22,725 nt of DNA from a virus (lineage: Duplodnaviria > Heunggongvirae > Uroviricota > Caudoviricetes): positions 1 to 22,725 of the IMG/VR virus record IMGVR_UViG_2681813227_000023. One strand, written 5' to 3'. A program made the translations under genes and the position numbers. Within the stretch, counting starts at the first letter, position 1, and the number at the start of each line of letters is the position of its first letter. The notes under the pieces were generated by a model, which worked only from the letters and a program-made list of their open reading frames with translations, was not told the origin of the DNA and made no database searches. Positions 10,861-13,465 of the stretch are shown piece after piece.

Positions 10861-11191
10861 ATCAGCAGCAGAGCGCAAAGCCGCTCAGAGAGCCAGACAA
10901 GCTGAATCCGGTGTACGTAAGCTGGAGATTGTGCTTGATGCTCAGGAAATTGAAATGCTGGAGCGTAACTGTGCCACGCGTCGCCCCGGGCGTGCGCCTT
11001 ACGAATTTGGTGAGTATATAGCGTTACTGATCCGCCAGGATGATGCACGCGTGCGCGGGCGTATAAAATCGATCAGCAGAAAACGTTGCGGTAAGTGCGG
11101 CGAGAGAGTTCCAGTTAATTCATGCCCGTGTAATGGTGACTCGCAATGCTGGGTGACTAAAGGCTGGCATGAAACGAAATTAATAGTGTGA
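10853..11191 (+). CDS. Hypothetical zinc-ribbon protein (112 aa), candidate regulator immediately upstream of the packaging genes
   Basis: ATG 10853; basic N-terminus (ERKAAQRARQAE) and C-terminal CGKCGERVPVNSCPC motif. Its stop codon lies inside the 14-bp palindrome at 11187..11200. Confidence 0.45.
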   Translation: MAKSAAERKAAQRARQAESGVRKLEIVLDAQEIEMLERNCATRRPGRAPYEFGEYIALLIRQDDARVRGRIKSISRKRCGKCGERVPVNSCPCNGDSQCWVTKGWHETKLIV

Positions 11192-11200
11192 CATGTCACG
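11187..11200. promoter_or_regulatory. 14-bp motif TGTGACATGTCACG with perfect 12-bp palindromic core (copy 1)
   Basis: Identical 14-mer recurs at 13452..13465; the two copies bracket terS and terL. Confidence 0.4.
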
Positions 11201-11240
11201 AGTAGATTATGCATGATAAATTTGATGGGTTTTGAATACT

Positions 11241-11266
11241 GCCGCCAACTATGGCGGCTTTATTTT
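11241..11266 (+). terminator. Rho-independent terminator-like hairpin upstream of the small terminase gene
   Basis: GCCGCC-AACTAT-GGCGGC followed by TTTATTTT; followed by direct repeats ACTATTACCAC (x2) before the terS start. Confidence 0.55.
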
Positions 11267-11309
11267 GCATGGTACTATTACCACAACGGTAACTATTACC
11301 ACGGTGGTT

Positions 11310-11906
11310 ATGATGCCTGCTGAACCTAAAACCTATAAACGCAAATCAACGCAATTTAAGCCACTAACAGCAATGCAGGAGGCTTATTGCCAGTCATACA
11401 TCAAAACGCCTGAAAACCAGACTCAGGCAGCGATTAACGCAGGATTCTCCCCAAATACAGCGGCAGTTAAAGCCAGTGTCATGATGCGCGATGAACGCAT
11501 TCAAAAACGGATTGCCGAGTTGATGGAGGAGCGCAACAAACGAATGCGCGTCAGTGCTGATTACGTTCTCATGCGCCTGGTGGAGATCGACCAGATGGAC
11601 GTGATCGACATCCTCAACGACGATGGGAGCCTTAAACCACTCCGTGAGTGGCCGAAAATCTGGCGCACTACGCTTAGTGGCTTTGATCTGTCATCGACCA
11701 TCATGAACATGAACGAGGATTCGATAGAGACAATCCTCAAAAAAATTAAATGGCCTGACAAGGTGAAGAACCTTGAGCTGATTGGTAAGCATGTTGATGT
11801 CAACGCGTTCAAAGAACGTCTGGATGTTAATGTGAATGTGACAATTGCTGATCGCATAGCAGCAGCCAGGAAGCGACTCAAAGAACGTCAGGATGGTAAT
11901 CAGTGA
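11310..11906 (+). CDS. Terminase small subunit (198 aa)
   Basis: ...MQEAYCQSYIKTPENQTQAAINAGFSPNTAAVKAS... matches the small-terminase HTH signature; stop overlaps the terL GTG start (GTGA). The ORF-track start at 11232 is TTG. Confidence 0.8.
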   Translation: MMPAEPKTYKRKSTQFKPLTAMQEAYCQSYIKTPENQTQAAINAGFSPNTAAVKASVMMRDERIQKRIAELMEERNKRMRVSADYVLMRLVEIDQMDVIDILNDDGSLKPLREWPKIWRTTLSGFDLSSTIMNMNEDSIETILKKIKWPDKVKNLELIGKHVDVNAFKERLDVNVNVTIADRIAAARKRLKERQDGNQ

Positions 11907-13378
11907 CAGATACAGCGTTATCTCCTGAAGAGCAGTTGATCGAGGATATTGCAGGGTTCACTCACGATCCGCTTGGCTATGCCCTATATGCGTTCCCGTG
12001 GGGGGAAGAGGGGACTGAACTGGCACATGCTACCGGCCCACGTCAGTGGCAGGCTGATGCGTTCCGAGAGATACGTGATCACCTGCAGAATCCAGAGACG
12101 CGCTATCAGCCGCTTATGCTGGCACGCGCTTCTGGTCATGGTATTGGTAAATCCGCATTCATCTCAATGCTGATCAACTGGGGCATGTCCACTTGCGAGG
12201 ATTGTAAGGTCGTGGTGACCGCCAACACCGACAACCAGCTACGAACGAAGACCTGGCCGGAAATTATCAAGTGGTCGAACCTTGCTATCACGAAAGACTG
12301 GTTTACCTGTACCGCTACTGCGATGTACAGCAATGATCCTGGGCACGACAAGCGGTGGCGAGCTGACGCAATCCCCTGGTCTGAGCACAACACTGAGGCA
12401 TTCGCCGGACTACACAACGAGCGCAAACGCATCATCGTAGTATTCGATGAAGCGTCGAACATTGCGGATCTGGTGTGGGAAGTTGCTGAGGGTGCGCTTA
12501 CGGACGAAGACACTGAGATTATCTGGGTGGCGTTCGGAAACCCTACACGTAATACCGGGCGTTTTCGCGAATGTTTCCGCAAATACAAACACCGCTGGAA
12601 AACTGCGCAGATTGACAGCCGGACGGTGGAAGGTACTAACAAACAGCAGTTGCAGAAATGGGTTGATGACTACGGGGAAGACAGCGACTTCGTTAAAATC
12701 CGTGTGCGCGGCATATTCCCTGATGCATCTGAATTGCAGTTTATCCCTACCGGTCTTACTGATGAGGCAATGAAACGGGTGGTAACCGCTGCGCAGGTGG
12801 CACATGCTCCGGTGATAATCGGTGTTGACCCGGCATATTCAGGCGTTGATGACGCGGTGATATACCTGCGGCAGGGGCTACACAGTAAGGTGCTGTGGAC
12901 TGGCAACAAGACTACCGACGATCTGATTATGGCGAAGCGTATCGCTGACTTTGAAGACCAGTATCAGGCTGACGCGGTGTTCATCGACTTCGGTTACGGA
13001 ACCGGTCTGAAGTCAATCGGTGACGGATGGGGTCGTACATGGCAACTTGTTCCGTTCGGTGGCGCGTCTACTGACCCGCAGATGCTCAACAAGCGTGGGG
13101 AGATGTTCAATTCATGCAAGACATGGCTGAGGCTGGGCGGGATGCTGGATGACCAGGAAACAGCGGACGACCTGTCGGCGGCAGAGTACAAAGTTCGCGT
13201 GGACGGTAAAATCGTTATAGAACCGAAGGAAGATATCAAGGAGCGGCTTGGGCGTTCGCCGGGTAAAGGCGATGCGCTACTGCTGACGTTTGCGTTCCCT
13301 GTGTCTAAGCGTCTGCGAATTCCCGGGCAGCAGAACCAGCAAGGCAAGGCCATTACAGATTACGATCCCTATGCTTAA
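11903..13378 (+). CDS. Terminase large subunit (491 aa)
   Basis: Walker A-like RASGHGIGKSAF and Walker B-like IIVVFDEAS ATPase motifs, acidic C-terminal nuclease region; coupled to terS. Confidence 0.85.
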   Translation: MTDTALSPEEQLIEDIAGFTHDPLGYALYAFPWGEEGTELAHATGPRQWQADAFREIRDHLQNPETRYQPLMLARASGHGIGKSAFISMLINWGMSTCEDCKVVVTANTDNQLRTKTWPEIIKWSNLAITKDWFTCTATAMYSNDPGHDKRWRADAIPWSEHNTEAFAGLHNERKRIIVVFDEASNIADLVWEVAEGALTDEDTEIIWVAFGNPTRNTGRFRECFRKYKHRWKTAQIDSRTVEGTNKQQLQKWVDDYGEDSDFVKIRVRGIFPDASELQFIPTGLTDEAMKRVVTAAQVAHAPVIIGVDPAYSGVDDAVIYLRQGLHSKVLWTGNKTTDDLIMAKRIADFEDQYQADAVFIDFGYGTGLKSIGDGWGRTWQLVPFGGASTDPQMLNKRGEMFNSCKTWLRLGGMLDDQETADDLSAAEYKVRVDGKIVIEPKEDIKERLGRSPGKGDALLLTFAFPVSKRLRIPGQQNQQGKAITDYDPYA

Positions 13379-13425
13379 TCCGTTAGCGGGGATAATGACG
13401 GAGATATCCTCTGGTGAGGATAAAA

Positions 13426-13452
13426 CAAAGCCAGCTCATCGGCTGGCTGTTT
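13426..13452. terminator. Bidirectional terminator-like hairpin between convergent terL and the minus-strand gene
   Basis: CCAGC-tcatcg-GCTGG stem-loop with U-rich runs on both strands (ctgtttg on plus; ctttgtttta on minus). Confidence 0.4.
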
Positions 13453-13465
13453 GTGACATGTCACG
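13452..13465. promoter_or_regulatory. 14-bp motif TGTGACATGTCACG (copy 2)
   Basis: Identical to the 11187..11200 copy; lies just beyond the stop of the minus-strand gene 13469..13840. Confidence 0.4.

Follow-up and report, generated by a model that had tools for sequence, protein, structure and literature searches.

A 12-bp palindrome linked to the gene of a small predicted ribbon-helix-helix and zinc-ribbon protein in Uetakevirus and other temperate phages

The DNA analysed here (hereafter the window, meaning the whole stretch of 22,725 nucleotides, positions 1 to 22,725 of IMG/VR record IMGVR_UViG_2681813227_000023) carries the same short palindrome on either side of its terminase genes, which raises the question of what such a pair of sites is for and what, if anything, binds it. 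An initial annotation had placed the first copy on the stop codon of a small zinc-ribbon open reading frame (ORF) and the second after terL, beside the stop of a minus-strand gene, both correctly, and had read the pair as possible protein-binding sites, recombination joints or endonuclease targets. The window belongs to a phiV10/epsilon15-like temperate podophage prophage of the genus Uetakevirus; between 10.5 and 14.5 kb it is ∼98% identical to E. coli O157 typing phages 9 and 10 and to phiV10, and the terminase region of more distant relatives is ∼79–82% identical to it. We propose that the palindromes are probably binding sites of the 112-aa protein encoded by this ORF, because the gene and the motif occur together, and more tentatively that they mark the boundaries of phage modules.

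The palindrome and its conservation among Uetakeviruses

A pattern search of the window found the exact 14-mer TGTGACATGTCACG at 11187–11200 and 13452–13465, as the initial annotation had reported, with the perfect 12-bp palindrome GTGACATGTCAC as its core. The statement that the 14-mer occurs exactly twice holds for the exact form only, as a 13/14 copy on the minus strand at 16496–16509 had been overlooked. The 12-bp palindrome, rather than the 14-mer, is the true unit, and the features on which the argument turns are as follows.

11188..11199, no strand: site a, GTGACATGTCAC, within the 14-mer at 11187–11200; its bases 2–4 (11189–11191) are the TGA stop of ORF 10853–11191
13453..13464, no strand: site b, identical GTGACATGTCAC, within the 14-mer at 13452–13465
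16497..16508, no strand: near-copy GTGACATGGCAC, matching at 11/12 positions with one half-site broken, within the Bbp19-like gene 16445–16741
10853..11191, plus strand: gene of the 112-aa protein, of the phiV10 gp55/epsilon15 gp49/N15 gp46 family (phrog_536); proposed binder of the palindrome

When up to two mismatches were allowed, five matches were found against 0.16 expected in the window; because the two perfect copies were counted on both strands, these five matches represent three positions. Two identical 14-mers had been thought improbable in themselves, but windows of 22.7 kb simulated with the same dinucleotide statistics (Markov-1) held a mean of 2.9 repeated 14-mers, so a repeated 14-mer alone is not rare in a sequence of this length. 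A repeated perfect 12-bp palindrome appeared in 3 of 300 such simulations. The decisive argument that the palindrome is real, and not a product of chance, is its conservation across genomes.

Related genomes, in which the initial annotation had suggested looking for the motif, carry the palindrome at homologous positions: we compared five reference Uetakeviruses (phiV10, epsilon15, Tyrion, Kp4865-1, and SPC32H) and found it in all of them. Identity is 12/12 at the syntenic sites a, b, and a further site, d, outside the window, in phiV10 (with one mismatch at a), epsilon15, Tyrion, and SPC32H, and at sites a and b in the Klebsiella relative Kp4865-1. Site a falls on the stop codon of the homologue of ORF 10853–11191 in the reference genomes and is also kept in most of 80 IMG/VR relatives. 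Site b is unchanged in all five references, where it is flanked by the terL terminator on one side and by a leftward gene's 3′ end on the other; in the window both the terminator hairpin (13429–13448) and the stop of the minus-strand cargo gene 13469–13840 are 4 nt away from it. Site d, present in four of the five, directly follows the last structural gene, 1–3 nt before a terminator. Across the references the adjacent terminator stems vary by compensating substitutions and the flanks drift, while the palindrome stays constant. Uetakevirus genomes have three or four copies each; in epsilon15 and SPC32H the fourth, a degenerate one, falls on the stop codon of Rz. Only phiV10 shares the near-copy at 16497; as the homologous codons of epsilon15, Tyrion, and SPC32H do not contain it, we treat it as a coding coincidence and probably not a functional site.

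The phiV10 reference record (NC_007804) is linearised through the middle of site a (positions 39100–39104 and 1–9), which renders the site invisible in that record. Its first nucleotide corresponds to window position 11192, inside the palindrome, its last to the gp55 stop codon, and a zero-length “terminator” feature is annotated at 39104. We considered and rejected the possibility that a physical genome end lies in the palindrome, since the depositors chose the last stop codon, that of gp55, as the end of the record, and the cut is thus no evidence of a cos or pac end.

Similarity among relatives breaks at site b. In 51 close relatives the 300 nt to its left were 87% conserved and the 300 nt to its right ∼24% (identity times coverage), and on the right many unrelated cargo genes are found, each with its stop codon at a fixed distance from the palindrome. 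The gene-side flank of site d was also variable among the matches listed. A pattern search found no second palindrome at the other end of the variable region beside site b. The suggestion that the sites are recombination joints delimiting an exchangeable packaging cassette was thus correct only in part: the sites coincide with mosaic boundaries, yet the variable part is accessory DNA outside the bracket, and the terminase genes travel with the sites.

The 112-aa protein and its co-occurrence with the motif

The 112-aa protein belongs to phrog_536, which is labelled “transcriptional regulator”, and in Uetakeviruses its gene is the last of the early-right operon. An AlphaFold2 model (43-sequence alignment, pLDDT 86.5) consists of a basic N-terminal helix, an extended segment, two helices, and a four-cysteine ribbon, and the protein is accordingly predicted to have a ribbon-helix-helix (RHH) core followed by a C-terminal four-cysteine zinc ribbon. 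The modelled core has the beta-alpha-alpha order that defines the RHH (CopG/Arc/MetJ) superfamily, whose dimers contact a specific site with a two-stranded beta-sheet in the major groove, and MatP, an RHH protein, was among the structural matches to the predicted fold; in a viral fold library the sole match was a fragment of the same protein family. Curated sequence models were less informative. No Pfam RHH family scored above threshold for any of the 43 family members, the sole RHH-type Pfam match being RepB-RCR_reg at E = 0.034 (a precomputed PF10723 tag is present on three proteins), the 112-aa protein matched no Pfam family, and sequence searches of the PDB with the single sequence and with two profiles returned nothing relevant to it. 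The family, small, previously uncharacterised and without a curated model, comprises 243 clusters at 50% identity (among 1.84 billion representatives), nearly all members being 100–135 aa long. By tblastn, homologues occur in Uetakeviruses, Yersinia P2-like myophages, N15/phiKO2-like linear-plasmid phages, Aeromonas phages, and Vibrio phages. The N-terminal helix (ERK..QR) and an RRPGRxPY loop are conserved across the family, and the putative beta-strand is variable.

The evidence that ties this family to the palindrome comes from 188 IMG/VR loci that were retrieved with family proteins and used for motif counts and stop-codon context. All four lineages that carry the gene (Uetakevirus, N15-like, Yersinia P2-like, and Vibrio) also carry GTGAC-N2-GTCAC, ∼100-fold enriched. 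When the spacing k in GTGAC-Nk-GTCAC was varied, enrichment was seen at k = 2 only, with 128 copies against 1.2 expected at Uetakevirus loci, 105 against 0.84 at N15-like loci, 58 against 0.89 at Yersinia P2-like loci, and 5 against 0.03 at Vibrio loci; swapped and direct arrangements of the arms were near zero. P2, P22, and lambda, which are without the gene, contain no GTGAC-N2-GTCAC. In three lineages the motif encloses the TGA of the gene, with a central dinucleotide peculiar to each lineage (AT, TG, or GC), and at loci where the stop is displaced upstream the motif is still found 6–7 nt downstream. In Yersinia phage 56.17, for example, the TGA of the homologue is inside GTGACGCGTCAC, and in N15 the gp46 stop is inside GTGACTGGTCAC, which occurs three times (28550, 33237, and 39269); Vibrio K303 also has three copies of the motif. 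Among loci of 24 bacterial species the stop was inside the motif in 17, and sites were nearby in another four. That gene and motif occur together in four unrelated lineages, and that the protein is predicted to adopt an RHH fold, favours the earlier suggestion of paired binding sites with this protein as the candidate binder.

At the IMG/VR loci and in the 24-species set the arms never vary, no compensatory changes are seen, and the centre varies. As read from these alignments, invariant arms without compensation around a variable centre are the pattern of sequence-specific recognition of double-stranded DNA rather than of an RNA stem. Conservation of the site is also apparent within coding sequence, as a 17-nt invariant block that contains it interrupts wobble-position variation on both sides in N15-like repA genes.

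Several further observations concern the motif in other settings. The repA copy in N15 itself is the GTGACTGGTCAC at 33237, and across N15-like loci L093–L141 the 17-nt block is invariant in 18 distinct contexts; another invariant block, with a further GTCAC, lies ∼25 nt away in repA of these loci. The exact 14-mer matches listed from IMG/VR are a mixture of chance and coding matches with true sites. In unrelated GC-rich phage contigs the 14-mer is found inside arrays of GTGAC/GTCAC half-sites within ORFs of ∼270–360 aa (L245, ∼10760–10860; L264, ∼755–800; L293, ∼1890–1960; L331, ∼10810–10890; and L274, ∼3140–3190). Immediately before these arrays is coding sequence for an ERKRxQRxR-like basic motif, similar to the N-terminal helix of the 112-aa protein, and one array-bearing ORF has an N-terminal YPGDYLRD motif. 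The arrays may be origin iterons or may reflect a wider pairing of the protein motif with the DNA half-site.

Surroundings of the sites, proposed role, and competing explanations

The sequences next to sites a and b bear on any role proposed for them, and those in the window are the following.

11201..11238, plus strand: deletion remnant of a ∼70-aa ORF, by comparison with locus L016, 10357–10569
11241..11266, plus strand: intrinsic terminator (GCCGCC-AACTAT-GGCGGC and a T-run) ending the early-right transcription unit, 41 nt after site a
11278..11310, no strand: two prophage-repressor operators, TTACC-N5-GGTAA, at 11278 and 11296, directly upstream of terS
11310..13378, plus strand: terS (about 11310–11906) and terL (11903–13378), between sites a and b, from Pfam Terminase_2 and the phiV10/epsilon15 annotations
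13429..13448, minus strand: terminator hairpin AGCCAGC...GCTGGCT, phiV10 annotation 2238–2257
13469..13840, minus strand: accessory (moron-like) gene of the N4 gp49/Sf6 gp66 family, Pfam PF13876, E = 2e-35

The ∼70-aa ORF is intact in 21 IMG/VR relatives, in which its ribosome-binding site directly follows site a and its end just precedes the terminator. An apparent extended −10 promoter, TGATAAAT, downstream of site a was therefore rejected, being a remnant of this deleted ORF, and a promoter scan around site a gave a single 9/12 match, a frequency equal to that in shuffled sequence. The terminator after site a has an annotated homologue in epsilon15 (39646–39671). The hairpin at 13429–13448 is strong for leftward transcripts (TTGTTTT tail), with a weaker T-run rightward. 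The palindrome is itself not an intrinsic terminator, as it has no T-run and folds to 4–5 pairs, the true terminators being the neighbouring hairpins.

The palindrome is likewise not the operator of the prophage repressor, which is another motif, TTACC-N5-GGTAA. This occurs nine times in the window against 0.34 expected (3712, 3775, 4487, 4535, 6818, 6880, 11278, 11296, and 14443), and a homologous repressor binding site is annotated in epsilon15 at 12–27. Operators stand directly before terS and, at 14443, before the portal operon, which suggests that packaging and structural genes are separate units under direct repressor control. Readings of the palindrome as a CRP, LexA, or Dam site were rejected on spacing, sequence, or absent co-conservation, in agreement with the earlier exclusion of a LexA box and of CRP.

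Other features of the window were noted in passing. Gene 13469–13840 is the first of a hypervariable region that starts at site b. This accessory region between terL and the portal gene (13466–14768) differs greatly in content among otherwise near-identical prophages; here it holds the Sf6 gp66/N4 gp49-family gene on the minus strand, a tRNA-Arg(TCT) at 14044–14120, also on the minus strand and the only match in an Rfam scan, and more terminator-like hairpins. At 5437–5589, inside the replication-protein ORF 5183–5998, there are four direct repeats of ∼24 nt with a CCCAAAAACGGGAT core, three of them in 24-nt tandem, that look like origin iterons.

We favour, and on balance consider likely, the explanation in which the 112-aa protein binds the palindromes, with the bound sites perhaps acting at module boundaries. 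Under this explanation GTGACATGTCAC would be the recognition site of the RHH and zinc-ribbon protein, with GTGAC-N2-GTCAC as the family consensus, and gene and site would constitute a tightly linked module in which the gene's TGA is part of a site in most members. A dimer would sit on each palindrome, recognising the invariant GTGAC arms through its basic N-terminal helix and RRPGRxPY loop, with the variable beta-ribbon facing the lineage-specific central dinucleotide. The three conserved Uetakevirus sites stand at the 3′ ends of transcription units, beside intrinsic terminators and at junctions of conserved and variable DNA, with site a at the end of the early-right operon, site b at the ends of both the leftward cargo gene and terS-terL, and site d at the end of the structural operon. 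At b and d in the reference Uetakeviruses the order in the direction of transcription is stop codon, palindrome, and then terminator 1–4 nt on. A DNA-bound boundary element of this kind could control read-through or insulate modules from each other, a role that we put forward as tentative and rather doubtful. A bolder proposal, which we consider unlikely, is that protein and sites form a non-cross-reacting phage counterpart of MatP/matS or a new DNA-bound factor that determines how efficiently intrinsic terminators work at module ends. As a MatP-like organiser, the protein might mark a few positions on the phage or plasmid-prophage genome for bridging, looping, cell positioning, or the exclusion of MukBEF-type host complexes for the structural maintenance of chromosomes (SMC). 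Either of these, if true, would add to temperate phages a function that has so far gone undescribed in them.

A number of observations weigh against this explanation. The co-occurrence of gene and motif would also fit one module that serves another binder, and three homologue loci of the 24-species set lack a site within 10 kb. Which central dinucleotide is found goes with the sequence class of the protein's beta-strand, but this link is suggestive, as it rests on four clades and is confounded with phylogeny. Rightward transcription would meet the palindrome before the hairpin at a and d and after it at b; in the 21 relatives with the intact ∼70-aa ORF this small gene intervenes between site a and its terminator; and in N15 and the Vibrio phages the sites directly precede ribosome-binding sites and are not next to terminators. 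As the geometry of site and terminator is not uniform, the support for a transcriptional-boundary role is weak. Finally, P2-like and N15-like phages carry their own late activators (Ogr and gp40), so that the family cannot be a general regulator of late genes.

Four other explanations deserve consideration. The palindromes could be passive boundary sequences, which together with the terminators would allow modules to be exchanged by homologous or microhomology recombination with no dedicated binder. This would account for the asymmetric flanks of site b and its unrelated cargo genes with a fixed distance from stop to palindrome, for the variable gene-side flank of site d among the matches listed, and for the Yersinia P2-like phages, in which the downstream sequence diverges directly after the site. 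It leaves unexplained, however, why the same arms with strict 2-bp spacing recur in four unrelated groups only with one gene family and why a site is conserved inside N15 repA, it offers no reason for a linker to be a perfect palindrome, and the variable region at site b is without a second copy at its other end; we thus consider it improbable. Somewhat less probable again is that these are matS-like sites bound by host MatP, or by another host factor common to enterobacteria and vibrios, which would tie phage DNA into host chromosome organisation and make the 112-aa protein an accessory or competitor rather than the binder. The spacer here is 2 bp rather than 3, the 13-bp form is not enriched at these loci, and deletion of one base from a spacer shifts and rotates the half-sites, usually abolishing binding by a rigid dimer. 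A host factor would also leave unexplained the tight linkage to one phage gene, embedded stop included, and the motif was not found in P2, P22, and lambda, which infect the same hosts.

The palindrome might instead act in RNA, GUGACAUGUCAC being a small hairpin or a zinc-ribbon target in the 3′ untranslated or intercistronic part of transcripts that controls mRNA stability, processing, or translation of the next gene. It is transcribed at every site, its RNA core is the same from either strand, a ribosome-binding site comes immediately after it in N15, in the Vibrio phages, and in 21 relatives among the Uetakeviruses, and zinc ribbons often bind RNA. The hairpin predicted for it is nonetheless only 4–5 pairs long with unremarkable folding z-scores, the arms show no compensatory changes while the “loop” varies, Rfam has no match to it, and sites b and d have no downstream gene, so we regard a role in RNA as very improbable. 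The proposal to which we give least credence, scarcely any, is that the sites are packaging signals (pac or an accessory to cos) or cleavage targets of the HNH-like product of ORF 7248–7856. The sites do bracket terS-terL, and in Vibrio K303-type phages one site is ∼20 nt upstream of terS and adjoins an HNH gene. A pac or cos site was nevertheless rejected because a Uetakevirus genome would be expected to have one functional locus, not three or four, and in N15 because all three copies are far from cos at the record ends; cos of the P2-like phages is also far from the motif copies, site d and the N15 repA site are unrelated to packaging, and the start of the phiV10 record inside a site reflects annotation practice and no mapped DNA end. 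The earlier suggestion of a homing-endonuclease or HNH target fails as well: phiV10 and epsilon15 keep the sites with no HNH gene annotated, and the HNH genes of SPC32H and Tyrion are at unrelated positions, without co-occurrence. The HNH assignment of the window ORF is in any case tentative, its Pfam scores being below threshold (HNH_3, E = 0.002; HNH, E = 0.024; zf-HIT, E = 0.002).

Significance and comparison with known systems

Literature searches for the motif strings found no description of it, and a paper on ZX5 mentions neither palindromes, late genes, nor pac. What appears to be novel is the combination of a predicted RHH protein and its putative cognate palindromic sites with an added zinc ribbon, an embedded stop, matS-like arms, and placement at module ends. 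Should binding be confirmed, an uncharacterised family that is spread over epsilon15-like, N15-like, P2-like, and Vibrio temperate phages and the prophages of enterobacterial pathogens would gain a cognate DNA site. The arrangement would be unusual in that the protein's stop codon is in its own putative site while other sites mark ends of transcription units and junctions of core and cargo DNA. It would provide a handle on the way in which early, packaging, structural, and cargo modules are kept apart or coupled in Uetakeviruses, for which no late regulator is recognised, and on why accessory genes gather at particular slots. The identity of its half-sites with those of matS makes cross-talk with, or mimicry of, host chromosome organisation a testable question. 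In addition, the result amends the annotation of the phiV10 reference record, which cuts through site a.

Lambdoid boundary sequences are short conserved sequences between phage modules, and the palindrome is like them in being a short conserved sequence at gene ends where the similarity of relatives breaks; it differs in being a strict palindrome linked to one protein family across unrelated phage types. The arrangement also recalls lambda Q and qut, as the Uetakevirus gene is the last of the early-right operon and a DNA site and terminator precede the late genes. However, further phage sites occur at other terminators and in both orientations, and homologues occur in phages with their own late activators. 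A terminator is present, but there is no Q-family Pfam match and the only promoter-like match around site a, 9/12, is at the frequency of shuffled sequence, so that the site is not demonstrably within a promoter; on these two grounds we rejected a Q antiterminator and qut. P2 Ogr and P4 Delta are four-cysteine late activators of ∼70–80 aa that bind TGT-N12-ACA at about −55 of late promoters. A site of this type was rejected because the architecture of a 12-bp palindrome is different; Yersinia P2-like phages have a separate small transcriptional regulator at the ogr position (32837–33055) besides the gp55 homologue. Compared with RHH repressors and centromere binders (Arc, Mnt, CopG, omega, ParG, TraM, and AmrZ), the 112-aa protein has an added four-cysteine zinc ribbon and no Pfam RHH match, the phage sites fall at gene and transcription-unit 3′ ends, not over promoters, and no partner toxin, ParA, or relaxase gene is near its gene.

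The closest parallel is MatP/matS. E. coli matS is GTGACRNYGTCAC, with the 13-bp consensus GTGAC-RNY-GTCAC (PMC6907758), so that matS has a spacer of 3, whereas the phage site is 12 bp with a spacer of 2; the matS-type k = 3 form was found 0–1 times per lineage set, compared with 58–128 for k = 2 in the three large sets. MatP has a coiled-coil C terminus and a four-helix-bundle domain, whereas the phage protein has a zinc ribbon and no four-helix bundle, is encoded by the phage, and has a gene that ends inside one of its own proposed sites. None of the 43 gp55-family members matched the two domains of MatP (PF06303, N-terminal, and PF17414, C-terminal), and an hhalign test of homology to MatP with a 9-sequence profile was not significant (probability 0.2%); a protein-database search with MatP gave mostly near-identical sequences (97–100%) and no usable profile. 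The resemblance of the two proteins is confined to their fold. Nevertheless, the half-sites of the two systems are identical (GTGAC ... GTCAC) and both form a short palindrome, both proteins are predicted or known to have an RHH-type core with a basic helix before it and a C-terminal extension after it, and each system has a few dispersed sites for one small protein. We conclude that the phage element resembles MatP/matS without being a member of that family.

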